Of a stretch of 32,000 nucleotides of DNA, positions 7,418 through 26,457 are shown one piece after another. Position 1 is the stretch's first letter; every line of letters begins with the position of its first letter. The stretch is from Cardiobacterium valvarum (lineage in GTDB: Bacteria > Pseudomonadota > Gammaproteobacteria > Cardiobacteriales > Cardiobacteriaceae). The position numbers and the translations under genes were made by a program. Under the pieces are notes generated by a model. The model was given only the letters and a program-made list of their open reading frames with translations, was not told the DNA's origin and searched no databases. Location: positions 1,144,738 to 1,176,737 of the forward strand of contig NZ_UFUW01000001.1 in assembly GCF_900460955.1 (NCBI RefSeq), given 5' to 3'.

Positions 7418-9091
7418 TTATAGCGCTTCGGCATATTGCACGAGCAGGTCGAGGCGTTCGTCGCGGTAGAAGCGGTTGACTTGCAGTTGGTAGGCGATGC
7501 GCAGGCGGGTGCCGCTTTTGTAATCGGCGGTGTGGAAGAACCATGAGGCGTTATAGACGTTGTCGCTGTCCAGTTCGCGCAGGACGAGGCGGGTATGTGC
7601 ACTGCCGAGCAGGCGACAATCCAGTACTTCAAAGGGGTTGGCAAAAACGGGCACGGGCAATGCCGCGCCCCAGGGTTCGAGGCGTTCGAGGTAGCGTGCC
7701 CAGTTGAGGTTGAGCAGGGTCGCGGGCAGTTCGCCGTCGATATAGACAGGTTCGGGCGGGACGGTTGCGCCGTAGCGTTCGGCAAAGGCGCGGTTGATGG
7801 CGGCAATAAGCGCCGGATAGTGTTCGCGCTGCACGGAGAGTCCGGCGGCAGCGGCATGGCCGCCGTAGCGCAGGGCGGCAGACGGCAGGTCGCGCGCGGC
7901 ACTGTCCAGGAGCGGCACCAGCGGCACGGCACTGACGGAGCGCAGCGAGGCTTTGATCCAGCCTGTTTCGCCGCTGTCGGTGGCGACCAGTGCCGGGCGG
8001 GCGAAGCGGCTTTTCAGGCGGGCGGCAAGGATGCCGATGATGCCTTCGTGCCAGGCGGGATCGTAGGCGGCGGCAAGCGGCAGCGCCGGCGAGACTTGCC
8101 GTGCGGCTTCTTGTACGGCTTCGTTTTCCAGCGCTTTGCGGTCGCGGTTCAGGTCGTCGCATTGTTGTGCGTAGTCGAGTGCGGTCTGGCGGTCTTTAGC
8201 AAGCAGCAGGGCGACGCCATCGGCCATGTCGCCGAGGCGGCCGAGCGCGTTCAGGCGCGGGGCGAGGGAAAAGGCGATGTCTTGCGCGGTGAGGCGGGCG
8301 GGATCGAGGTTGGCGACCGCCATCAGGGCATTGATGCCGGTATTGCCGTGGCCGCTGCGGATACGGGCGAGGCCGTGGTTGACGAGGATGCGGTTGTTGT
8401 AGTCGAGCGGGACGAGGTCGGCGACGGTGCCGAGGGCGACGAGGTCGAGGTAGTCGGAGAGGCGCAGGGTATCCGGCCAGCGGTTGTCCGCGAGCAGGCG
8501 GCTGCGCAGGGCGAGCAGCAGGTAGAAGGCGACGCCGACGCCGGCGAGGTGTTTGCCGGCAAAGGGGCAGTCGCGCCGGTTCGGGTTGACGATGGCGTTC
8601 GCAGGCGGCAGGGTTTCGCCGGGCAGGTGGTGGTCGGTGACGACAACGTCAATGCCGCGCGCGCGCGCGGCGGCAATGGCATCGTGGCTCTGGGTACCGT
8701 TATCCACGGTGAGGATGAGGCGCGGCGTGACTGGCAGGTCGGCGAGTCCGGCGAGGCTGAAGCCGTAGCCGTGCACGCTGCGGTTGGGGATGAACCAGGC
8801 AACGTTCGCGCCGAGTTGACGCAGGACGCGCACGGTAAGTGCAGTCGCGGTTGCGCCGTCCACGTCGTAATCACCGTAGACGAGGATGGGTTCGCGGGCG
8901 CGGATGGCGTGATCGAGGCGGTCAAGCGCGGCGTCGAGACCGGTGAGGTTGTCCGGTGGTAGCAGGTGTTGCAGGCGTTTTTCGATTTCGTCGTGATGGT
9001 TGAGGCGGCTGGCGTAGATGTTTTTGACGAGCGGATGCCAGTCGGCGGGCAGCGCGGCGGTGTCGATGCGCAGGGGGCGGGGGGTGATCAT
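7418..9091 (-). CDS. recJ: Single-stranded-DNA-specific exonuclease RecJ
   Basis: 557-aa ORF with DHH-family motifs (ILVYGDYDVDGATATA, VVVTDHH, GTVADLVPL) and the DHHA1 region (GGHAAAAG). Confidence 0.95.
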   Translation of the reverse strand: MITPRPLRIDTAALPADWHPLVKNIYASRLNHHDEIEKRLQHLLPPDNLTGLDAALDRLDHAIRAREPILVYGDYDVDGATATALTVRVLRQLGANVAWFIPNRSVHGYGFSLAGLADLPVTPRLILTVDNGTQSHDAIAAARARGIDVVVTDHHLPGETLPPANAIVNPNRRDCPFAGKHLAGVGVAFYLLLALRSRLLADNRWPDTLRLSDYLDLVALGTVADLVPLDYNNRILVNHGLARIRSGHGNTGINALMAVANLDPARLTAQDIAFSLAPRLNALGRLGDMADGVALLLAKDRQTALDYAQQCDDLNRDRKALENEAVQEAARQVSPALPLAAAYDPAWHEGIIGILAARLKSRFARPALVATDSGETGWIKASLRSVSAVPLVPLLDSAARDLPSAALRYGGHAAAAGLSVQREHYPALIAAINRAFAERYGATVPPEPVYIDGELPATLLNLNWARYLERLEPWGAALPVPVFANPFEVLDCRLLGSAHTRLVLRELDSDNVYNASWFFHTADYKSGTRLRIAYQLQVNRFYRDERLDLLVQYAEAL

Positions 9092-14384: not shown

Positions 14385-14394
14385 GAGGAAGCGT

Positions 14395-14723
14395 TAAAAA
14401 AATCAGGTGGCCGCAGCACGTCGAAAGCAGGGACGCCATGAAGAAACCACCTTCCTGATTATTGATGTGCAGAGTGTGATGAACACGGATACCGCTATGG
14501 AAAAAGGCTACGATGCGGGTAAGAAAGTGAGCGGTATCAAGCGGCATATAATTGATAGGTGCGGAGGTAGAGATTGCGAAACGAGTTGCACCGTTTTGAG
14601 GTATTGCCGAAGCGATGGGTAGTAGAGCGCAGTTTTTCCTGGCTGGAAAAGAACAGACGGCTTTGGAGAAACTGCGAGCGTAAGTTGAGCACCAGTCTGT
14701 AAATGGTGGTTTTGGCTTTCTAG
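14395..14723 (+). pseudogene. IS5-family transposase remnant (5'-truncated, internally deleted, in-frame stop)
   Basis: TFLIIDVQSVMNTDTAMEKGYDAGKKVSGIKRHII matches the conserved IS5-family DDE core. After an apparent deletion and frame change, the sequence reads [42 protein letters not shown], which is the C-terminal motif of the family interrupted by a TAA. No N-terminal part is present. Confidence 0.7.
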
Positions 14724-14784
14724 GGAGTCCTGCTATGAAGGCTATGAACATCTTTCTTAAAAAGATGGCAGCCCCAAGCGGGTG

Positions 14785-14828: not shown

Positions 14829-14918
14829 GGAGAGATGGCAGAGTGGTTTAATGCACCGGTCTTGAAAACCGGCGAGGGTTCACGCCCTCCCAGGGTTCGA
14901 ATCCCTGTCTCTCCGCCA
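14829..14918 (+). tRNA. tRNA-Ser (anticodon UGA), class II with long variable arm, CCA encoded
   Basis: Manual fold. Acceptor stem GGAGAGA/TCTCTCC. Anticodon stem CCGGT/ACCGG with loop CT-TGA-AA. Long variable arm CGAGGGTTCACGCCCTCC. T arm CAGGG-TTCGAAT-CCCTG. Terminal CCA present. Confidence 0.95.
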
Positions 14919-15017: not shown

Positions 15018-15032
15018 GTTTATTTGTGTTTG
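15018..15032 (+). repeat. Left copy of the 15-bp direct repeat GTTTATTTGTGTTTG (candidate att core)
   Basis: This is an exact 15-mer. The second copy is at 19445-19459. It lies 29 nt upstream of the integrase ATG and about 65 nt after the tRNA terminator. Confidence 0.4.
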
Positions 15033-15061: not shown

Positions 15062-16291
15062 ATGAAAAACGGGGTTCTTTTGGGATTCATTCCCGCTGGT
15101 TACAATCCCGCCGACCCTGTGCGATTGACCAAAAAGACCATCAAAAATGCCCCGGCAGGCGAGCGCCCTTACAAACTGTTTGACGGCGGCGGGCTGCATC
15201 TGTTCATTACCCCGCCTGGCGGCAAACACTGGCGTTACGATTACCGCTTTGACGGCCAGGATTGCACCCTGTCACTGGGTGTATATCCAAAAGTCAGGCT
15301 GAAACAGGCGCGGCAACTGCACCGTGACGCACAAAGCCTGCTTGCGCAAGACACCGACCCGCACCGCCACAAGCAGAAGCAGAAACAGGCAGAAAAGCAG
15401 CAAGAAAACTTTGAGAAAGTCGCGCGTGAGTGGTACGCCCACCAGCGCCCCGCGTGGAAGAACGAGAAACACGCCTGGCAGGTCATCCACACCCTGGAGC
15501 AGTACGTTTTCCCACATATCGGCAGTAAAGCCGTCAGCGAGATCCAGCCGCCTGCCATCGTCAGCATCCTGAACCGGCTGGCCGATAAACCCGAAACCAG
15601 AACCCGCGTCAAACAGCGCATCAGTGCTGTTTTCGCCTTCGCCATCCAAACCGGCAGGGCGACGCTCAATCCCGCCTTATCCGCCCCAAAAACGGTACGC
15701 AGCGCGCAAAACCGGGTTCGACACCAGCCATCTTTGCCGACGGCAGAAATCCCTGCCTTCTTTCAATGCCTCGAGCGCTATCCTAACCGTAAAACGGCGT
15801 TGGCATTGCGCCTCTTGATCTTGACCCTGACCCGTAGCGGCGAAGTCAGGCTGGGACAATGGGCGGAACTGCACGGCGATCAATGGCATATTCCCGCCGA
15901 GCGCATGAAGATGGGCATTGCCCATGTAGTGCCACTGTCAGATTGGGCACTGGCAACACTGGACGAACTGCGTGCCCTGAACCGCTACAACAGCCCCTAT
16001 TTCATCACTGGCAACCGCAACCAGTCCCTTAGCGACACAACCCTGTCGCTGGCGATGAAGCGCATGGGCTATGGCGGACGCGCCGTGCCGCACGGTTTTC
16101 GCGCGATGGGTTCGAGCATCCTCAACGAAAGCGGGCAATGGAATCCCGATGCCATCGAGCGACAGCTGGCGCACCGTGAGGGCAATCAGGTCAGGGCAGC
16201 CTATAACCGCGCCGAATATCTGGAAGAACGGCAACGCATGATGCAATGGTATGCCGATTATTTACGCGCGCAGATTAGCAGCGGGGGATAG
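15062..16291 (+). CDS. int: Tyrosine recombinase, P4-type integrase (DUF4102 N-terminal arm-binding domain plus phage-integrase catalytic domain)
   Basis: LTKKTIKNAPAGERPYKLFDGGGLHLFITPPGGKHWRYDYRFDGQDCTLSLGVYPKVRLKQAR is the typical P4-integrase N-terminus. The catalytic region carries TRSGEVR, HVVPLS, HGFRAMGSS and ...QLAH....VRAAYNRAEY. The gene lies next to a tRNA. An in-frame GTG at 15119 is an alternative start. Confidence 0.9.
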   Translation: MKNGVLLGFIPAGYNPADPVRLTKKTIKNAPAGERPYKLFDGGGLHLFITPPGGKHWRYDYRFDGQDCTLSLGVYPKVRLKQARQLHRDAQSLLAQDTDPHRHKQKQKQAEKQQENFEKVAREWYAHQRPAWKNEKHAWQVIHTLEQYVFPHIGSKAVSEIQPPAIVSILNRLADKPETRTRVKQRISAVFAFAIQTGRATLNPALSAPKTVRSAQNRVRHQPSLPTAEIPAFFQCLERYPNRKTALALRLLILTLTRSGEVRLGQWAELHGDQWHIPAERMKMGIAHVVPLSDWALATLDELRALNRYNSPYFITGNRNQSLSDTTLSLAMKRMGYGGRAVPHGFRAMGSSILNESGQWNPDAIERQLAHREGNQVRAAYNRAEYLEERQRMMQWYADYLRAQISSGG

Positions 16292-16836: not shown

Positions 16837-17068
16837 TTAAACCATTTTTGACTATTCTGAATAAATGGTAATTCTGTATTATTTGTTTCTTTCAATAGTG
16901 TTCGAAGTCTGCTTTTTCAAGCCATTACCAATTTGCCGTTTTTTGACAGGGCACGACGGCGGTTGTTTACAAATCTGACGATTTGCCCCAACCGTTCGTG
17001 CCAAAGGGGCGACGCCCCTTTGCAACCCCGCTATGATGCGATGACCTACAAACCAGCGAGAAGAAGCC

Positions 17069-17338
17069 ATGAAGGAAAGCGAAGCTGTCATGAACGAACC
17101 CCCGTCTCCCTCTTTTGCAACACAGGAAAGCGAAGCACGCCTGTTACGCATTGATGAAGTCAGCGCGATAGTGGGTTTGAAGCGCACCACGATTTGGCAT
17201 CGGTGTAATCCGGATAGTCCCTATTACGATGCGAGTTTCCCAAAACCCATCCGTATTGGCAGCCGATGGATTGCCTGGAACAGCCGCGATATTCAAACAT
17301 GGATTGCTGCTATTACCGCACAAGGCCATTCCGGTTAA
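17069..17338 (+). CDS. alpA: AlpA-family (MerR-type HTH) phage/island transcriptional regulator or excisionase-like protein
   Basis: LLRIDEVSAIVGLKRTTIWHRCNPDSPYYDASFPKPIRIGSRWIAWNSRDIQTWI matches the AlpA/Phage_AlpA helix-turn-helix pattern. The position after a P4-type integrase is typical for this family. Confidence 0.8.
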   Translation: MKESEAVMNEPPSPSFATQESEARLLRIDEVSAIVGLKRTTIWHRCNPDSPYYDASFPKPIRIGSRWIAWNSRDIQTWIAAITAQGHSG

Positions 17339-17632
17339 TTCAATTCATCAAGGATAAATGTTTTCCTATTGATTATTGCCATGGTTATCGTGATTGTGTC
17401 ATTTAATATCATTACCGTAAGAAACGGCAATCAAATTATGCAGCCCGAATTTCAACAAGCGTAATGAGTGCTATGTGCGCTCTTTTTATGCCCTATTCTT
17501 GCGCCCGTTTTTATGGCGGTATACGTGGTAACGCTATTTTCTTACTTGATCGGTAATGCGAATCCCCTGTACGTCGCCTTTTGGGTTCGCAGCAATGGCA
17601 ATGGTTATTCTGAAATCAGCAAGGAGACTGTC

Positions 17633-17734
17633 ATGTCGTGCCATTTTCCCTTGCCGCGCAGCGATATCGCCGCTAGTGTCTGCGTACCCCTCGCAAGCAA
17701 CGCTTGCTGCCAAATGACGGGCGGTGCCGCATGA
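17633..17734 (+). CDS. Possible 33-aa Cys-rich leader ORF translationally coupled to the DUF927 gene
   Basis: AAGGAG (17621-17626) lies 6 nt before the ATG at 17633. The peptide is MSCHFPLPRSDIAASVCVPLASNACCQMTGGAA. Its TGA overlaps the next gene's ATG (ATGA at 17731-17734). The ORF track shows a longer GTG-initiated version, 17468..17734. No family is recognised. Confidence 0.3.
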   Translation: MSCHFPLPRSDIAASVCVPLASNACCQMTGGAA

Positions 17735-19410
17735 GCGATCCCCGCTTTACCTGCCGCGATGGCGGTTTGTGGTTCGATAGTGGCAACGGCGAGCCGCAAC
17801 GCATCAGCGATGCCTTCGAGGTGGTCGGCGATGCCTACGACGACAACGGCGAACCGCACTACATCCTCAAGCACAACGGTCAGCACTTCGCCTTACCCTG
17901 GGCGGAAGTGGGTGAACGCAACGGCTGGCGCATCATGCGCCGCCACATCCGCCGCATTCCGACTTCCCGCCGCCAGCAGGAACGCCTGGCCGACTACCTG
18001 CAAGCCCAACCTCTGCCGCAACGCTGGACACTGACCGATACCGCCGGTTGACACGGACACGGCTACATCCTGCCCAACGGCGACACCCTCGGCAGCGCGA
18101 ACAATATTCTCTTCCAGCAACCCGCACCGCGTCATGGTCATGACGCCTTCACCCCGCGCGGCACTCTTGCCGAATGGCGCGACAGCATCGGCCGTTACGC
18201 CGCCGGTAACAGCCGCATGTGCCTGATGCTGGGCGCCGCCTTTGCCGCCCCGCTGCTGCAACGTTTCGGACTGGAAGGCGGCATCCTGCACCTCTACGGC
18301 CCGTCATCGAGTGGCAAAAGCACCCTGCAACGCGTGGCGCTATCGGTGTGGGGACACGGCCGCGACGCCGGCCATAGCTGGAACGCCACCGGTTACGCCC
18401 TGACCAACGCCGCCGCCGCGCGCAACGACGGCCTGCTCTCCCTCAACGAAATCGGCGAAGACAGCAAACAGGCCGTAGAAACCTGCGCCTACGCCATTGC
18501 CAACGGACGCGCCCGTCTGCAAGGGGCGAAAGAAGGCGGCAATCGCCCGGAATTACGCTTCCGCGTCCTCGCGATCTCCAGCGGCGAAACCAGCCTGCAA
18601 GCCCACTTCGGCAAACAGGGACGGCAAATGATGGCCGGGCAGATGGTGCGTTGCCCGTCCATCCCGCACCGGTTGGAGGACAAACACGGCTTCCCCGACT
18701 TCCGTGCTTTCACTGACCACCTCAACTATACCGCTATAACCACCTATGGCAGCGCAGGGCGGCTTTTTATCCAAATCCTGATGAAGGACATCACCCAGGC
18801 GGAAAAACGGCTGAAAACACTGTACACAGCGTTCTTGGGAGAGGCACACGACTGCCACCCCATGACCGCGCAACAGGGACGTAGCGCGCGTATCTTCGCC
18901 CTCTGCGCCGCCGCGTTGATGCAGGCGAGTGACTGGGGCATCAGCGGCATCAGCGCAGAAGCCGCGCGCGAAGGCGTCATGCAAGCTTTCGCCGACTGGT
19001 ACGCCTTGCAACCCCGGGGCAGCTACGAAGAAGCACGGATACGCGAAGCGGCAGAACGCTTTCCCCTGTTGCTGCCGCGTTTCGTGCGCTTGAGCGAGGG
19101 GCAAATGTTCTATCCCAACGACTGGGCGGGTTACGTCTGGGACGAGGCAAACGGCGCACTGTACGATGTACTGCCCGCCGTCTTCGTCGCCCACTTCTGC
19201 GACGGCGACAAAGAACGCATCGCCGATGCCTGTGACATCCTCGGCGGCAAAATGGGCTGGCTGGCGCGCCCTGCAGGCAGCCGCCATGGCGACCGCCGCT
19301 GGCAGCACCGCCGCAAGGTCAGGGGCAATTTATTGCGCGTTTACCGCTTCAAAGGTGCCCAGCTGCCTGTAGCAGGCGAAGAAGAGGCGGAGGAAGGGAA
19401 AGACACCTGA
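17731..19410 (+). pseudogene. DUF927-type P-loop helicase-like replication protein of integrative elements, interrupted by one in-frame TGA (18049-18051)
   Basis: ORFs 17704..18051 and 18217..19410 are in the same frame. My translation of 18052-18216 has no other stop. The joined product reads ...RWTLTDTAG*HGHGYILPNGDTLG...GILHLYGPSSSGKSTLQRVALSVWGH..., with a Walker A motif and DUF927-like architecture. Confidence 0.8.
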
Positions 19411-19428
19411 TCCGTCCACAAATGCGAC

Positions 19429-19458
19429 AAGCCGCCTACGGGCGGTTTATTTGTGTTT
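19429..19458 (+). terminator. Rho-independent terminator after the DUF927 gene (overlaps the right 15-bp repeat)
   Basis: GCCGCC-tacg-GGCGG followed by TTTATTTGTGTTT. Confidence 0.5.
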
Positions 19459-19459
19459 G
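19445..19459 (+). repeat. Right copy of the 15-bp direct repeat GTTTATTTGTGTTTG (candidate att core)
   Basis: Exact match to 15018-15032, located 35 nt after the DUF927 stop codon. Confidence 0.4.
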
Positions 19460-19635
19460 GGCGGTACAGCGGCGGCGGTGGAATGATGCTGCCTAGCGGG
19501 TACATGGGAATCGCCGGGATGCCCCGAAATCCGCCCGGGAAGGCAGGTGAACATGGATAAAATATGGGCAATCTGTAACGGCAAGAAATCAGAAAGGATC
19601 GCATCACGCACTCGCACGCCTGATGCGAGAACGGC

Positions 19636-19830
19636 AAAAACAGCGGGAACCCCATTGATTTTATTACCAGCACAACGGGAACCATAACGGGAATCTAACG
19701 GGAACCCGATGGGAATTTTGATATAGATCAAGCAGATGGCACCTAGCCGGTTCCCGCCGGGTTCCCAGCAACGTTCCCGCCCTATTTCTTTAAAAAACAA
19801 TGTGGTTCCCGTGGTTCCCGCTGTTTTTCG
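19636..19830. repeat. Dyad-symmetric array of ten GGGAAY / RTTCCC hexamers (iteron-like)
   Basis: Forward GGGAAC/T copies are at 19645, 19677, 19689, 19700 and 19711. Reverse GTTCCC copies are at 19750, 19761, 19773, 19805 and 19814. The outer arms AAAAACAGCGGGAACC and GGTTCCCGCTGTTTTT are inverted copies. An AT-rich centre contains GATC. Confidence 0.6.
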
Positions 19831-20255
19831 ATTTTTGCCCACTTTTACATCACACCCTGCTTTTCCCCACAAGATGAACCGTAATGTTTACCGCTTGGGC
19901 TGTTAATGTTTCTCCTCTGCCACGCTCACCCACGTCAGCGTGTCATCCACCCCGCTTCCCCAATTTGACGGAACAAAGCCGATAGCGTAGTTTGTTTAAT
20001 GCTTCCAGTACCGCCTGGGCCGAGGAACCCCCGCATCGGATGATGTGGAAGGTCCGGTAGAACCCAGAGCGGCACTGGGGCTTTCTCTTTCTATCAAGCT
20101 CCCCTCCCCTCTTTCTCTACCTATTGTTCTTTGGTATTGGACGATCTCTGAACTCAAGGAAAATTCCCTCGGGTTTCCCGTCATAAAGCCATTGACAAAT
20201 TCATTGCGCATCCTTTGTCAGGACATCGCCTATTTTTTAGGGGCGTTCAAAAAGG

Positions 20256-20264
20256 TGGTATAAT
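20256..20264 (+). promoter_or_regulatory. Extended -10 promoter element (TGgTATAAT) upstream of cdiB
   Basis: An exact TGnTATAAT lies 50 nt upstream of the cdiB ATG (20314). No convincing -35 is present, which is compatible with an extended -10 promoter. Confidence 0.4.
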
Positions 20265-20313
20265 ACGATTTATACAATCAAACTACGGATGGACCATCAT
20301 CCAAGGAAGGCCT

Positions 20314-22056
20314 ATGCGCTACCTCCCCTGTTTCTTGCTGCTGGGAGCTATTTCTACCACGGCACAACAAACCGCTCCCGTTGACCCCGACTTGATCTAC
20401 CGCCGTGCCGAGGCACGACAGCAGCGCCTCAACCAAAGCGTGACACCGCAAGATTTTTCCACTCTTGACTTCTCTGCCCCCGCTGCTGACGAAACGCCGC
20501 TATCGCAAGAAGCACGCGAAGCCTGCACCAGCTATAAGAACCTCACGCTGCAAGCGCCCAGTCGTGCTTTTTACCGCTATTTGGAACGGGCTGTGGACAC
20601 CCAGCATCTGCAAGCGAGAGGATCAAACACTTACGGCAAAGCACAAGGCTGCATCCGCGCCGGGGAAGTGATGGATATCATCAAAGCGGCGCAAAACCAG
20701 TTGATTGCCGATGGTTGGGTGACAACACGCGTTGTCTTGCAGACACAAGGCGCACAGCAGGACACCCTGCAACTTGCCGTACTACCAGGGAAAATAGCGG
20801 CCATCCGCGAGGAGAAAAACGGCGTACAGCGGACACCAAAAACCTTTACACACCTGCGCGGACGAGTGCTCAACCTACGTGAACTAGAGCAAGCGCTAGA
20901 TAACGTGCGCCGTCTCAGCGGTCTGGACGCCAACATTGACATTGCGCCAGCGGCACGCGAAGGTGAGAGCGAGCTGATCGTGCATTGGACGAAGACCGGA
21001 CGCCCCTACCAGTTTAGTTTCCTCATTGATGACAGCGGCAGCAACGCGTTGGGCAAATACCTGGCAACCGCCAGTATTGCGGTGGACAACCCGCTGAACT
21101 TTAGTGACAGTTTTTATGCGAGCTACACCCGTACCCTCAAACCGGGTACACGCTTGCGCGACCGCGAGGGTAAGCGGCACAAAACCTCTACGGATAACTA
21201 CTACCTCAACTACACGATCCCCTACCGTGACTGGCAGCTAGGTCTGAGTGCGAGCCGTTACCACTACGACCAAGTCATCCCCGGCTATGCCCGCGTTTAC
21301 CACTACAAGGGCAACAACCAGAAATTTGCCGCCGACATCAGCAATACCATTTATCGCGATCAGAACAAGAAGACCACGCTTGATGCCGGATTGTGGTGGC
21401 GAGAAAACCGAAACTACATCGGTAGTGCGGAAATTGACGTGCAAAAAAGACGCACGGCTGGCTGGCAGCTGGGCATACGGCAGAGCATCCTCTTCCCACA
21501 AGCCGTCTTTCAGGGCGCTATCCATTACAAAAAAGGAACGCGGATGCTTGGTGCCGACCCTGTACCGGAGGAAGGCTTTAACGAAGGCAACGCCAAAGCG
21601 GGCATCTGGACGCTGGATTCGGGCTGGCATGTTCAGCTGGATAAAAACCGCAACTGGAGCTGGCAGAACGACCTGCACCTGCAATACAGCGACAGGCGCC
21701 TCATCTCCCTAGATCTGTTGACCTTGGGTGGGCGCAACAGCGTACGCGGCTTCAGCGAGAACAACAGCCTTTCCGGCGACAGCGGCTGGTACTGGCGCAA
21801 CACCCTGAATTGGGCCTACCAACCGAATCACCAGCTCTACCTAGGGGCGGACATGGGCCAGGTATGGGGCAAAAACACCGCCTGGCTACGGGACAAATTC
21901 ATCGCCGGTACGGTACTGGGCGTACGCGGCGCGGTGAATTACCACGGGAGCTGGCAATACGACGCCTTTATCGGCACCCCGATTCTCAAATCACGAGACT
22001 GGAAAAAAACCGACCGCTTCGTGCTTGGCTTCAGCGCCGGCTACCACTGGCAATGA
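20314..22056 (+). CDS. cdiB: Two-partner-secretion outer-membrane transporter (ShlB/FhaC/HecB family; CdiB)
   Basis: The ATG at 20314 is preceded by AAGGAAGG and begins a signal peptide, MRYLPCFLLLGAISTTAQQ. A POTRA-like segment (LQLAVLPGKIAAIREEKNG) is present, along with beta-barrel motifs including GGRNSVRGFSEN (the conserved VRGY/F loop-6 motif) and a C-terminal aromatic residue. The gene lies directly upstream of a TpsA/CdiA gene. Confidence 0.9.
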   Translation: MRYLPCFLLLGAISTTAQQTAPVDPDLIYRRAEARQQRLNQSVTPQDFSTLDFSAPAADETPLSQEAREACTSYKNLTLQAPSRAFYRYLERAVDTQHLQARGSNTYGKAQGCIRAGEVMDIIKAAQNQLIADGWVTTRVVLQTQGAQQDTLQLAVLPGKIAAIREEKNGVQRTPKTFTHLRGRVLNLRELEQALDNVRRLSGLDANIDIAPAAREGESELIVHWTKTGRPYQFSFLIDDSGSNALGKYLATASIAVDNPLNFSDSFYASYTRTLKPGTRLRDREGKRHKTSTDNYYLNYTIPYRDWQLGLSASRYHYDQVIPGYARVYHYKGNNQKFAADISNTIYRDQNKKTTLDAGLWWRENRNYIGSAEIDVQKRRTAGWQLGIRQSILFPQAVFQGAIHYKKGTRMLGADPVPEEGFNEGNAKAGIWTLDSGWHVQLDKNRNWSWQNDLHLQYSDRRLISLDLLTLGGRNSVRGFSENNSLSGDSGWYWRNTLNWAYQPNHQLYLGADMGQVWGKNTAWLRDKFIAGTVLGVRGAVNYHGSWQYDAFIGTPILKSRDWKKTDRFVLGFSAGYHWQ

Positions 22057-22158: not shown

Positions 22159-25100
22159 ATGAACAAAGGAATTTACAAAACCATCTACAGTGCAGCCCTG
22201 CAACAAATTATTGTTACCTGGGAATACGCACGCGGTAAGGGCAAAAGCCATGGCGGATATAGCAGACGGACGCCAGGAATCCGCATCCGTCTGCTGCCGG
22301 CCTGCATTGCCCTGGCCTGTGGCCTCAGCCCACAACTACTCTGGGCAGAAAGCGTAATTAGCGAAGATGATCGCGCCCCTGCCCACGAACGTCCGGTCAT
22401 CCTGAAAACGGCGAACGGCCTGCCACAAATCGACATCCAGACTCCGGACGCCTCCGGCATCTCGATGAACCGCTACAGTCAATTTGACATAGACGCGGCA
22501 GGCGCCGTAATGAATAACGCGCGCAAAGACAGTGCGACCCTGAGTGGTGGTGTGGTGGCGGGCAACCCGCATCTGGCCAAGGGCGAAGCGGCGCTTATCG
22601 TCAACCAGGTACGCAGCCAAAACCCTTCCCACTTGCAGGGCATGGTGGAAATTGCCGGACAAAAAGCCGACGTCATCGTGGCGAATCCGGCGGGGCTGAT
22701 GGTGAACGGAGGATTTATCAACGCCGGCAAAGTGCAATACACCGCCGGACAAGTCGCTATCGAACAGGGCAGGCCGGTGCAACACAGTGCACCGAATGGC
22801 CTGATCGAAATCACCCCCGGTGGACTGAACGCGCAGCAACACGACTACACCACCCTGCTAGCACGGCAAATCAAGCTAAACGGAGAAATCCAGGCAGGTG
22901 CCGGGCAAGTGGATCTCATCACCGGCAACAACAGCCTGGGAGCCGACGGCAGCATCACCCCTAAAAATACGGACGAACAATATGCAGCGCCGCGCTTCGC
23001 CGTGGACAGCAGTGCACTTGGAGGCATGTACGCAGGCCGCATCCGCCTCATCGGCACAGAACAGGGCGTCGGCGTGCATCATGCCGGCACCCTCCAGGCA
23101 GAGAGTCTGAATATCCAGCTGCCTGGCACCTTGGAAAACAGCGGCAACATCAGAGCCAATGCCCTCGACATCCAGCTGGAAAACCTGCAAAACAGCGGCG
23201 AACTGTGGCACAACAGCAACAACACCCTCTACCTGCGCAGTAACGCATTCAGCAACCGCGACAAGGCTACCTTGCAGGCGCGTACAGCCGGACAAGAGCA
23301 AGCAGAAAAGAACACCCCGGAAACCCAAAACAACGCCGACAGCAAAAACAGCAACGCCATTGGCCGCATCACCGCCAGCGGCAAGATAGACAACCGGGGC
23401 AACATCAGTAGTGGCGGCAATATCGACCTCAATACTCGTGACTACCAAAACAGCGGCACCGTCACCATCAGCCAAATCACCCTGCGCGACGGCAATTTCG
23501 ACAACCGCGGCGGCACAAGCCACTTTGAAAATGCCGACATTCGGGCGAGCAGCCTCGACAACCGCAGCGGTACCCTCAACTTCGAACGCGCAAAACCCAT
23601 CATCATTCAGGGTCAGCTGGATAACCACCGGGGCGGCATCAACAGCATCGCGCCGCTTGACATCAGCGCCGGGCAAATCAGCAACACCGGAGGGGGTAAC
23701 ATCAGTAGCGCGACCACCCTCAGTCTCTACGCCCGTCGTGACATTGCCAACGACGGCAGCATTAGCGCTGGCAGCAGCGCCAACCTGAAAGCAGGACAAA
23801 ATATTACAAACAGCGGCTTGATCAGCGCAGGCGAAGCCCTGGCTCTTGACGCCGGCAATAACATTGAAAACAGCGGCTCCCTCTATGCGGGCAGCACCCT
23901 CGATCTCAACGCGGGTAACACCATTGACAATAGCGGCAACATCTCCGGCGAGCTACTTAATATCAGCGCTGACAGCCTGGAAAATCGCGAGAGCGGCACC
24001 ATCACCCAGCGCGGCCCCTACTCGCTCAACATCCATACCGCCGACTACGACACTGCGACCAGCCCGTACAACAGCATCCGCACCCGAAAACCGGGGACAA
24101 GCGCAGGCAGCGCGGCGGGCACGAGCGGGGGCGAATCCGCCGGCCCCGAAGGCAGCCTGAAAATCCGCTCCGGCTTCAACAACCGGGGCGTCTTTGAAAT
24201 CAATCACTTGCTCTCGGTCACGGCAAGCAAGAGCTTCACCAATCACCAGGACAGCGAATTTGCCCGCCTCACCCTGACTCAGGGCGCAAACCTCGACAAC
24301 AGCCACGGCACCCTGCGCAGCCAAAGCATGCGTTTTGATGCAGGCGACATCAACAACCAGCACGGCAGCCTGCAAACCAACACCCTGCACCTGAAAAGCC
24401 AGAATCTGGACAACCGTTTCGGGCGCATAGAAGTCGCGGATAAAGCCGAATTCAACATCAGCAAACGGTGGGACAACAGTCACGGTCAGGTGAAAGCCGG
24501 CACCCTGCGTATTGACAGCATAAAAACCAGTAACGACGGCGGCAGCATCAGTGCCCAGAACAACCTGCACCTCTACAACCGGGGACACTGGGACAACGGA
24601 AGCGGCCAGCTGCTGGCCGGCGGTGACATGACCCTAAATGACGGTACCTTGGATAACCGGGGCCGCATCCAGGCGGGCGGCGAACTGAAATACCAGAATT
24701 TCACCCAGCTGAACCAGCAAGGCGAACTGTACAGCAACAACATCGCCCTGCATGGCAAGACACTGAGCAACAGCGGCACCACCGCCAGTGCGCAGCACAT
24801 CACCATCCACAGCGATACCACTGAAAACAGCGGCAAGCTCAGCGCGGCAGAGACGCTCACCGTCAACAGCCAAAACGTCAACAACCGGGGAGAACTCCAG
24901 GCGGGCGGTGACATCGGATTACAAGCACAAAACACGACGAACAGCGGCCGCATCATTAGCAACCAGAACAGCCGCATCAGCGGCGAAAAACTCGACAACA
25001 GCGGCCTTATCCACGCCCAACAACAACTCTACCTGCGCAACCGCCACCTCAAAAACAGCGGCACGGTAACCGCCTCAGACGAAACTACCATTGATGCCGC

Positions 25101-26457
25101 CGAGCTGGATAACAATGGCAAACTGGCCGGCAAAACCCGTATCACCGTAAACACGCCGCAGTTTGCGAACAAAGGCGGCAACATCGGCAGCGACAAGGAA
25201 GTCATCATCAATACCCCTGAGCTTAATAACAGTCAGGGACAAATCGCCAGCCGGGGCCGCCTCACCCTGAATGTCGCCGGCAACATTAACAACAGCGGCG
25301 GCGTGCTGGCTACCGAAGAAGACTGGCACATCAAAACCCCGCAACTCAATAACAACGGCGGCAACATCCACAGCGGCAAAAAGCTGCACATAGAAACCCC
25401 GAAGCTCGATAACACGGGCGGCAGCATTGACGGCAGCGAATACCACCTGCAAAGCAGCGACATCAACAACCAGGGCGGACACCTCATCGGGCGCAACAAA
25501 CTGCACATAGAGACCGACGGCGAACAACTGAATAACCGGGGCGGACAAATCGTCAGCCAGGACGAACTGCGCATTGATGGCAAAAAAACCACCATTGACA
25601 GCAGCGGCGGCCACATCGTCGGCAACAACCTGAACGTTGACGTCGATAGCGTCAAAGGCGGCAAAGTGAAAAGCTGGGCCGACCTGCAAATGCGCGCGCG
25701 CCGTATTGATGACCTGGAAGAAGTGCGCACCGGCGGCAACATGGACATCCAGACCAAAGAACGCTACACCTTCAATGCGCCGCACTACAGCGGCGGCTGG
25801 GCGAAGATTGGTGCCAAGGAGGGCGTAACTTTCACACCCGATGCCAAATTCGAATTCAAAGAAAACGCCGAAATCACCAGCGATGGCTTCATCAACAACG
25901 AAGGCCAGATTGCCGCCTACGGTACCCTGCTGCTCAAAGCCGGCACCACCATCGAAAACAGACACAGGGCAAAAATCCAGGGCGGACACGTTGCGATGGA
26001 GGCGCAAAGCCTGAAAAACTTCGATGGTGCCACCATCGCTGCCGCCGATCGCATTGACCTGGCTGCCGGTGAAATCATCAACGAACACGGCGCGAAAATC
26101 GAAAGCGTGGGCGGCCTCCATGTTGGCCGCACCCTCGATGGCAATCACCAGGCAACCGGACAGGCAGATCTTCTGCGCAATGACAACAATGGCGAAATCA
26201 ATGCGGATGGCGATGCTACTTTCAATGCGGCCCGCATCGAAAACATCGACAGCCGGAAATTTATCGGTAACGATATTTACGAGTTGAAAGAAGTCACCTT
26301 CTATTCGGACCGAAGTAGGAAGAACGAGTGGATCCCGGAAGAATATCGAAGCCAGACCCCTCATGGACACCACACCAAATATCATTACATATTAGAAAAA
26401 GTGTCGGTGTGGTACGCAACGTTGCACCCGGCAAGATCAGTGTGGGCGGCAACCTAA
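22159..26457 (+). CDS. cdiA: CdiA / FhaB-family TpsA exoprotein, N-terminal 1,432 codons (frame 1; interrupted by a frameshift)
   Basis: The N-terminus MNKGIYKTIYSAALQQIIVTWEYARGK is like an extended signal peptide. The TPS/haemagglutination-activity domain is present (ISMNRYSQFDIDAAGAVMNN, VAGNPHLAKGEAALIVNQV, ADVIVANPAGLMVNGG). It is followed by about 1,100 aa of degenerate FHA-type repeats (NxGxLxAxxxLxLxxxxLxN). Confidence 0.9.
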   Translation: MNKGIYKTIYSAALQQIIVTWEYARGKGKSHGGYSRRTPGIRIRLLPACIALACGLSPQLLWAESVISEDDRAPAHERPVILKTANGLPQIDIQTPDASGISMNRYSQFDIDAAGAVMNNARKDSATLSGGVVAGNPHLAKGEAALIVNQVRSQNPSHLQGMVEIAGQKADVIVANPAGLMVNGGFINAGKVQYTAGQVAIEQGRPVQHSAPNGLIEITPGGLNAQQHDYTTLLARQIKLNGEIQAGAGQVDLITGNNSLGADGSITPKNTDEQYAAPRFAVDSSALGGMYAGRIRLIGTEQGVGVHHAGTLQAESLNIQLPGTLENSGNIRANALDIQLENLQNSGELWHNSNNTLYLRSNAFSNRDKATLQARTAGQEQAEKNTPETQNNADSKNSNAIGRITASGKIDNRGNISSGGNIDLNTRDYQNSGTVTISQITLRDGNFDNRGGTSHFENADIRASSLDNRSGTLNFERAKPIIIQGQLDNHRGGINSIAPLDISAGQISNTGGGNISSATTLSLYARRDIANDGSISAGSSANLKAGQNITNSGLISAGEALALDAGNNIENSGSLYAGSTLDLNAGNTIDNSGNISGELLNISADSLENRESGTITQRGPYSLNIHTADYDTATSPYNSIRTRKPGTSAGSAAGTSGGESAGPEGSLKIRSGFNNRGVFEINHLLSVTASKSFTNHQDSEFARLTLTQGANLDNSHGTLRSQSMRFDAGDINNQHGSLQTNTLHLKSQNLDNRFGRIEVADKAEFNISKRWDNSHGQVKAGTLRIDSIKTSNDGGSISAQNNLHLYNRGHWDNGSGQLLAGGDMTLNDGTLDNRGRIQAGGELKYQNFTQLNQQGELYSNNIALHGKTLSNSGTTASAQHITIHSDTTENSGKLSAAETLTVNSQNVNNRGELQAGGDIGLQAQNTTNSGRIISNQNSRISGEKLDNSGLIHAQQQLYLRNRHLKNSGTVTASDETTIDAAELDNNGKLAGKTRITVNTPQFANKGGNIGSDKEVIINTPELNNSQGQIASRGRLTLNVAGNINNSGGVLATEEDWHIKTPQLNNNGGNIHSGKKLHIETPKLDNTGGSIDGSEYHLQSSDINNQGGHLIGRNKLHIETDGEQLNNRGGQIVSQDELRIDGKKTTIDSSGGHIVGNNLNVDVDSVKGGKVKSWADLQMRARRIDDLEEVRTGGNMDIQTKERYTFNAPHYSGGWAKIGAKEGVTFTPDAKFEFKENAEITSDGFINNEGQIAAYGTLLLKAGTTIENRHRAKIQGGHVAMEAQSLKNFDGATIAAADRIDLAAGEIINEHGAKIESVGGLHVGRTLDGNHQATGQADLLRNDNNGEINADGDATFNAARIENIDSRKFIGNDIYELKEVTFYSDRSRKNEWIPEEYRSQTPHGHHTKYHYILEKVSVWYATLHPARSVWAAT

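Follow-up and report, generated by a model that had tools for sequence, protein, structure and literature searches.

A dyad-symmetric iteron array 3' of a DUF927 gene as the probable replication origin of a tRNA-Ser-integrated island in Cardiobacterium valvarum

The replication origins of staphylococcal pathogenicity islands (SaPIs) consist of 6-12 penta- or hexanucleotide iterons immediately downstream of rep, with an AT-rich region near the centre and at least two iterons per side in opposite directions (PMC9371898; the SaPI origin work of Ubeda et al. is used here as cited in PMC9371898 and PMC7581432). SaPI Rep proteins are self-loading helicases that recognise the iterons through a C-terminal winged-helix domain (PMC9371898), and DUF927 corresponds to the helicase family of SaPIbov1 Rep and Cch (PMC7581432). 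The phage-inducible chromosomal islands (PICIs) of E. coli have the same origin organisation, described as unlike that of any other known bacterial replicon, and plasmid maintenance depends on their rep plus ori (PMC6092414). Here we analysed a 32,000-nucleotide stretch of the Cardiobacterium valvarum contig NZ_UFUW01000001.1 (hereafter the window), in which an array of short repeats separates a DUF927 gene, rep, from cdiB, the first gene of a contact-dependent inhibition (CDI) operon. Judging from its sequence and from comparison with related loci, a small island integrated at tRNA-Ser, in which int, alpA, rep, ori and cdiBA follow in this order, very probably has its replication origin in this array, as part of a replication module of the PICI/SaPI type. 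SaPIs and E. coli PICIs provide precedents for this type of origin and for its mechanism; the host is new. The view of the initial annotation that no annotated feature type explains the array was too strong, as a rep_origin with iterons fits (PMC6092414, PMC9371898).

The array packs ten GGGAAY/RTTCCC hexamers into approximately 180 bp. On rechecking, the positions and spacings given in the initial annotation were exact, both for the five forward GGGAAY copies (starts at 19645, 19677, 19689, 19700 and 19711, spaced by 32, 12, 11 and 11 bp) and for the five reverse RTTCCC copies (starts at 19750, 19761, 19773, 19805 and 19814, spaced by 11, 12, 32 and 9 bp), and Tandem Repeats Finder reported a period of 11 over 19674-19706. 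The plus strand of the window holds three copies of GGGAAC, every one inside the array, and five of the seven GTTCCC copies also fall there; together these two motifs form one single cluster in 32 kb. The density of GGGAA/TTCCC reached 10 per 200 bp at the array against a window mean of 0.31. Comparison with shuffled sequence, which had been proposed as a check, placed the hexamer count above all of 5000 dinucleotide-preserving shuffles of 19630-19830 (mean 1.24, maximum 6). The array is real, and its sequence is strongly non-random.

Four forward/reverse pairs share one common centre (GGGAA/TTCCC starts 19700/19751, 19689/19762, 19677/19774 and 19645/19806, each summing to 39451), and random placement yielded at least four mirror pairs with P = 0.0017. 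The axis of these pairs lies at 19727.5, in the middle of the GATC at 19726-19729, rather than at ~19733 as first placed. The outermost arms (19636-19651 and 19813-19828), described earlier as inverted copies, are 16 nt long and 100% complementary; their centre at 19732 is offset from the axis owing to the absence of one 9-bp outer-left iteron from the window. The consensus unit exceeds the hexamer and reads RCGGGAAC(C). GATC is scarce in the window, with 55 sites per 32 kb, and the dyad axis of the iteron pairs is the exact centre of a GATC both in the window and in its closest relative, Cardiobacterium sp. Marseille-Q4385 (L001; GATC at 8869-8872).

In L001, the same block extends from the tRNA gene through cdiA at 91-95% identity, with the array and cdiB in one block. 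This relative keeps the 9-bp outer-left iteron, and all five of its pairs are mirror-exact about the same GATC. Only one of the 13 substitutions that separate the two 193-bp arrays hits the 60 hexamer bases, and it moves towards the consensus. The looser GGGAAT and GGGAAG copies noted earlier at 19506 and 19537 are not kept in L001 and probably lie outside the array. The L001 island sits at a tRNA-Ser(cga) gene (2702-2791), that of the window at tRNA-Ser(tga); homology begins exactly at the tRNA, and the 3' halves of the two tRNA genes are identical, which suggests that one integrase uses two tRNA-Ser genes. Since the same block is found at a different tRNA-Ser gene, the island appears to be mobile as a unit, with cdiBA as its cargo.

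The rep reading frame could be reconstructed with a single in-frame TGA, and an intact homologue with 96% identity (P0001) was found in metagenomes. The DUF927 family profile matched the SaPIbov1 replication initiator-helicase (8tch_A, E = 6e-26) and Cch (5dgk_A, E = 4e-22) of the staphylococcal cassette chromosome mec (SCCmec), and PHROGs grouped the protein with DNA primase/helicase families. Pfam revealed no primase domain in this initiator. The last 150 residues of Rep were modelled by AlphaFold with a predicted local distance difference test (pLDDT) score of 90.8. Foldseek aligned this C-terminal model with the winged-helix oriT-binding protein 5vfx and with the C-terminal parts of 8tch and 5dgk, at probabilities of 0.9-0.99 (0.99 to 8tch and 0.98 to the winged helix-turn-helix (wHTH) protein 5vfx).

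The window thus contains, besides a Rep homologue (by profile) with a predicted C-terminal winged-helix domain (by model), an array that begins 226 bp past the rep stop codon, just beyond the terminator, with five forward iterons to the left and five reverse iterons to the right of the spacer at 19717-19749. The initial annotation had described an AT-rich core with a GATC between them; the GATC stands, and the DNA between the sets is AT-rich, although only modestly so (70% AT over 19710-19729). Because the array shares every sequence-level feature of SaPI and PICI origins, we read it as the probable island origin, bound by Rep. After induction and excision, the DUF927 Rep would form hexamers, by homology to SaPI Rep, and its C-terminal winged-helix domains would bind the RCGGGAAC iterons. 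The opposed iteron sets, phased at about one helical turn, could each load one hexamer, so that the dyad would be flanked by two; once the intervening and adjoining AT-rich DNA had melted, the two helicases would unwind outwards. We propose the central spacer as the melting site; the DNA is also AT-rich in two other spacers, at 19650-19669 and 19780-19809. The TTGATATAGAT motif of the central spacer is also present between the iteron sets of a GCGGGAAC-type Neisseria origin (L034), and near copies with 1-2 differences were found in two other loci (L025 and L054).

The initial annotation had suggested a search of other genomes for the same architecture beside DUF927 genes. We collected 80 genomic loci with relatives of Rep, plus nine from exact-protein look-ups, and scored an array when a single 7-mer, counted in both orientations, occurred at least six times in the 700 bp that follow the DUF927 gene. 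Among the 69 loci with enough downstream DNA, 42 passed (6-14 copies), against 17 of 852 control windows from the same loci (2%). The architecture therefore recurs, with different 7-mers. The iterons differ by lineage and include TGGTTACC, TTGTTACC, GTCGTTACC, GCGGGTATG, GGTTGGTATG, TGTCGGAAC, TGTGGGAAT, AGTGAAA, GGTAGTAAC and GCGGGAACA. The common layout comprises opposed outer doublets (8-9 bp) at both ends, inner triplets (~9-12 bp) and AT-rich spacers. Ten relatives were checked for the genes that follow the array: these were mostly housekeeping genes (among them Obg, a NarXL-like pair, OmpA, SDR, FdhE, a ligase and lipoyl synthase) and cdiB in none, indicating that the array belongs with rep and not with cdi. 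Conserved elements flanking the arrays were noted in the window (hairpin at 19599-19628) and in L007, L016, L018, L025 and L035: a short GC-rich hairpin or GCGAGA motif and an A-run precede the first iterons in many relatives, and in Neisseria loci the last iterons give way to a TATATACGC motif and then a T-run.

The same combination was found on two small plasmids. In the circular 12.7-kb E. coli plasmid pSYM9 (L091, 1389-3830) and in a 6.9-kb Enterobacter plasmid record (L090, 1453-3900), a DUF927 gene is followed by 13 ACTGGTTCCA iterons, arranged as opposed triplets. Both plasmids carry a 61-aa gene annotated as 'Rop family' between the DUF927 gene and the array, so that a second replication system is possible. 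The DUF927-plus-array module may be an uncharacterised plasmid replicon type. Together with the recurrent arrays and the SaPIbov1 Rep profile match, the two plasmids support the suggestion, made when the array was first described, of an iteron origin for the adjacent DUF927 protein.

Among described systems, SaPIs share with the window the origin 3' of rep, the opposed iteron sets around AT-rich DNA and the homologous DUF927 Rep. The window differs from them in its Gram-negative host, Cardiobacterium, and in its iterons of 8-9 bp (RCGGGAAC) instead of 5-6 bp; its element is without primase or packaging genes, its rep is truncated, and its origin is predicted from sequence. Gram-negative PICIs such as EcCICFT073, with its pri-rep-ori (PMC6092414), resemble the window in their co-directional order of int, alpA, replication gene and ori, in the two iteron sets flanking an AT-rich region and in the accessory cargo 3' of the origin. 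They have been described from Enterobacteriaceae and Pasteurellaceae and, as elements, are ~10-20 kb long and subject to helper-phage induction and packaging, whereas the window island carries cdiBA in place of capsid, terS and interference genes. In keeping with this order, the int - alpA - rep - ori block of the window is co-oriented and located at tRNA-Ser.

The initial annotation had drawn an analogy with ori/crr of P4. An iteron origin for the DUF927 protein holds up, with the SaPI/PICI origin as its closest analogue rather than P4. The window is like P4 in having short repeats in both orientations, which in P4 are bound by the element's own replicative helicase, and in its P4-type integrase. 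However, P4 alpha combines a primase with a D5-type SF3 helicase in one fusion protein whereas the window initiator is a DUF927 (MCM-like) helicase, P4 needs two separated clusters (ori and crr) where the window has one, and the iteron sequences are unrelated. SCCmec Cch is a DUF927 helicase (5dgk) like the window Rep, and its origin has been proposed directly downstream of the helicase gene; the iteron origin described for SCCmec belongs to Cch2, a different helicase family, and consists of only three AAGTG direct repeats without a dyad array. Classical iteron plasmids (RepA/pi/TrfA) also place initiator sites beside AT-rich DNA at about one-turn spacing. Their iterons are 17-22-bp direct repeats accompanied by DnaA boxes, and their Rep is a WH1-WH2 protein rather than a helicase; in the window, the iterons are 8-9 bp long and form inverted sets, and no DnaA-box-like site (up to one mismatch) or IHF-like site was found in 19401-20215. 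The Neisseria dRS3/NIME repeats have the form ATTCCC-N8-GGGAAT, and were ruled out by their different orientation, spacing and context.

With the cdiB start 386 bp downstream in the same intergenic region, the array could also act as an operator or enhancer platform for cdiBAI transcription, cooperatively bound by a regulator (for example AlpA) or a host factor. Cooperative operators typically have helically phased sites, and the array and cdiBA were inherited together in L001. We nevertheless consider this regulatory role, which had been raised at the outset, very unlikely: the same architecture is found 3' of DUF927 genes in dozens of loci whose next genes are never cdiB, the iterons vary by Rep lineage though the downstream genes are unrelated, and a scan of 19300-20300 found no sigma-70-like promoter. 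The initial annotation had also considered a cluster of integrase arm-type or AlpA/excisionase sites for island excision and integration, and the island does encode an integrase with an arm-binding domain as well as AlpA; in minimal relatives, moreover, the array is within a few hundred bp of the right end of the island. Arm sites of attP should sit no more than a few hundred bp from the att core, but in the window 4.7 kb separate the array from the tRNA junction. A search for attR as a second copy of the tRNA-Ser 3' end, with up to 3 mismatches allowed, found none in the window, its remaining 12 kb included. Between the loci L007 and L018, all iterons switch while AlpA remains 86% and the wHTH protein 97% identical, and it is the Rep C-terminal domain that drops to 55%. 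With the two plasmids carrying a DUF927 gene plus array and no annotated tyrosine integrase, a function in site-specific recombination is exceedingly unlikely.

A packaging (pac/TerS) or partition (centromere-like) site is highly improbable. Some relatives encode TerS and centromere-like sites likewise consist of short phased repeats, but no terS or par gene was recognisable alongside the array in the islands of the window and of Suttonella or on the plasmids, and the position of the array is tied to the 3' end of rep, not to terS. The array might instead be a structural DNA or RNA element, such as a single-strand origin or terminator formed by a long imperfect hairpin or cruciform, and single-stranded DNA of 19630-19835 indeed folds at -49.4 kcal/mol (z = -7.2 relative to shuffles). 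This pairing comes from the iterons only. The left and right spacers show no sequence relationship, so that conservation applies to a set of sites and not to a hairpin, and relatives mix iteron orientations within one arm, which does not preserve a single hairpin. No Rfam family matched, the scan of the whole window returning tRNA only, and a structural element is extremely improbable.

Several observations weigh against the reading of the array as an origin that is bound by Rep. The TGA at 18049-18051 stands in place of Trp107, a residue that does not vary across the family alignment (A1), and rep is probably a pseudogene here. Given the premature TGA and the deleted outer iteron, the origin is probably silent unless intact Rep is supplied in trans, and it may be a recent relic. 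In L001, rep has an early frameshift near codon 19 and an insertion sequence (IS; ~7760-8640) between the rep terminator and the array parts the two. The window island has no primase gene, unlike its Neisseria and Suttonella relatives, and its central AT-rich stretch is short (~20 bp) compared with SaPIs, with two extra AT-rich spacers. The Foldseek E-values for the C-terminal model of Rep were weak (0.03-0.1). As to the IS itself, the contig of the intact homologue P0001 also ends in it, and a partial copy, 87-88% identical, is present at 14385-14760 (minus strand) of the window, just upstream of tRNA-Ser.

The same caution applies to the relationship between the Rep C-terminal domain and the iterons, for which the sequence comparisons gave mixed evidence of covariation. 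L007 and L018 are 95% identical over Rep residues 1-470 and 55% in their C-terminal domains, and every iteron is switched by one base (TGG- to TTGTTACC) on an otherwise similar scaffold. Similarly, the window and L002 share 73% identity in the helicase core and 32% in the C-terminal domain, and their iterons are different. In contrast, L002 (4827-5177) and L083 (7789-8139) have a common scaffold on which all 11 iterons differ at two positions (TGTCGGAAC versus TGTGGGAAT), though their winged-helix region is identical; their Rep proteins differ in an acidic tail and a few core residues. The C-terminal domains of L015 and L039 are 92% identical, with GGTTACC and GGGTACC as respective iterons, and the C-terminal domain of the window is only ~25% identical to those of Neisseria loci that use the GCGGGAAC iteron. 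A rule that the same iteron goes with a similar C-terminal domain fails on this last value and on the two near-identical pairs with different iterons. In addition, the C-terminal domain and the origin are adjacent, so that a single recombination tract could swap both.

Some relatives offer a fuller view of the element. A Neisseria locus encodes AlpA, a wHTH protein, TerS, a Toprim primase and Rep, and in Suttonella sp. R2A3 a ~6.3-kb island contains int, AlpA, HTH_39, a Toprim primase, Rep and 13 iterons before housekeeping genes follow; from their gene content, these relatives look PICI-like. It is conceivable, though on balance unlikely, that the window represents one member of a widespread lineage of minimal islands (~5-6 kb; int - alpA - [pri] - DUF927 rep - ori) in Cardiobacteriaceae, Neisseriaceae and Moraxellaceae, of which one captured cdiBAI 3' of its origin, and in which iterons can change in concert while the winged helix is unchanged. 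As far as could be found, this lineage is apparently undescribed in the literature. If such a capture took place, Rep-driven replication would amplify the toxin/immunity gene dose of cdiBAI; if iterons do change in this way, specificity would be set by more than, or by something other than, the C-terminal domain. The breadth of the unannotated origin family and the concerted iteron change without winged-helix change are the more unusual points of the comparison. The natural iteron variants on near-identical scaffolds (TGG- versus TTGTTACC; TGTCGGAAC versus TGTGGGAAT) provide material for the study of origin recognition by self-loading helicases.

The proposed origin would turn an unannotated intergenic region with two spurious open reading frames (ORFs) into a replication origin, and would identify the island as a PICI-like replicative element carrying a CDI operon. 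It also suggests a simple annotation rule: an iteron array is to be expected directly after a DUF927 gene. This held in ~60% of the 69 loci and could serve to annotate many origins. The two minus-strand ORFs in question (19447..19872 and 19341..19685) had been regarded as spurious from the start, consistent with the lack of a Pfam match for either. Neither E. coli genomes, searched with 19400-20200, nor plasmids and phages, searched with 17000-20200, gave a match at the DNA level. The features of the island and of the proposed origin are listed in Table 1.

Table 1 Features of the island and of the proposed origin region (window coordinates)
Feature	Position	Strand	Support
tRNA-Ser(tga), left junction of island	14829..14918	+	ARAGORN, Rfam
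P4-type tyrosine integrase (int)	15062..16291	+	Pfam Arm-DNA-bind_3, Phage_int_M, Phage_integrase
AlpA-family regulator/excisionase	17069..17338	+	Pfam Phage_AlpA, E = 3e-12
Small ORF, 88 aa, 4-bp overlap with rep start	17468..17734	+	
rep (DUF927 initiator-helicase), 559 codons, in-frame TGA at 18049-18051	17731..19410	+	Pfam DUF927
Terminator-like hairpin then T-run, end of rep transcript	19429..19448	+	
11-nt inverted repeat (hairpin) just left of array	19599..19628	.	
Whole dyad-symmetric region, proposed origin, GGCAAAAA to TTTTTGCC	19633..19839	.	Conserved in L001
Left outer iteron GCGGGAAC; its 9-bp twin (present in L001) missing	19643..19650	+	
Left AT-rich spacer	19651..19674	.	65% AT over 19650-19669
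Left inner iteron set, four forward copies, starts 12/11/11 bp apart	19675..19716	+	
Central spacer; AT-rich left half TTTGATATAGATCAA; GATC 19726-19729 on dyad axis	19717..19749	.	
Right inner iteron set, three reverse copies, starts 11/12 bp apart	19750..19780	-	
Right AT-rich spacer	19781..19804	.	75% AT over 19780-19799
Right outer iteron doublet, starts 9 bp apart	19805..19821	-	
cdiB (ShlB/FhaC-type transporter), island cargo 3' of origin	20215..22056	+	Pfam ShlB + POTRA
cdiA, split	22159..32000	+	Pfam TPS, Fil_haemagg, ESPR; frame analysis

The 88-aa ORF upstream of rep had no Pfam or PHROG match; a small gene (74-91 aa) that ends at or overlaps the rep start is also present in L081, L082, L086 and L088. 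No terS, capsid or interference genes were recognised in the island of the window, and its right end is not inside the window. An exact 15-bp direct repeat, GTTTATTTGTGTTTG, occurs at 15018-15032, upstream of int, and at 19445-19459, after the rep terminator. This T-rich sequence brackets int-alpA-rep and was the sole match obtained from the attL side in the search for attR; its second position is not conserved in L001, and it is probably due to chance.

The cdiA gene consists of an ORF at 22159-26457 and a second frame, free of stops, which starts at 26319 and continues past the window end, and this split into two frames implies a frameshift near 26319-26457. The last ~1 kb of the window falls to 39% GC, as expected for the variable CdiA-CT region. 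A 910-aa minus-strand ORF (26676-29408) was rejected as a gene: it has no Pfam match, is antisense to the long stop-free cdiA frame and is probably an antisense artefact. CDI-related fragments (Fil_haemagg_2, DUF6966) were also found upstream of alpA in L083 (65-3598), which hints at a recurrent association of these islands with cdi loci in Cardiobacterium. Elsewhere in the window, a cluster of GCGGCA at 7751-7950 (7 copies per 200 bp) lies in GC-rich DNA where long ORFs overlap, and probably reflects a coding repeat.

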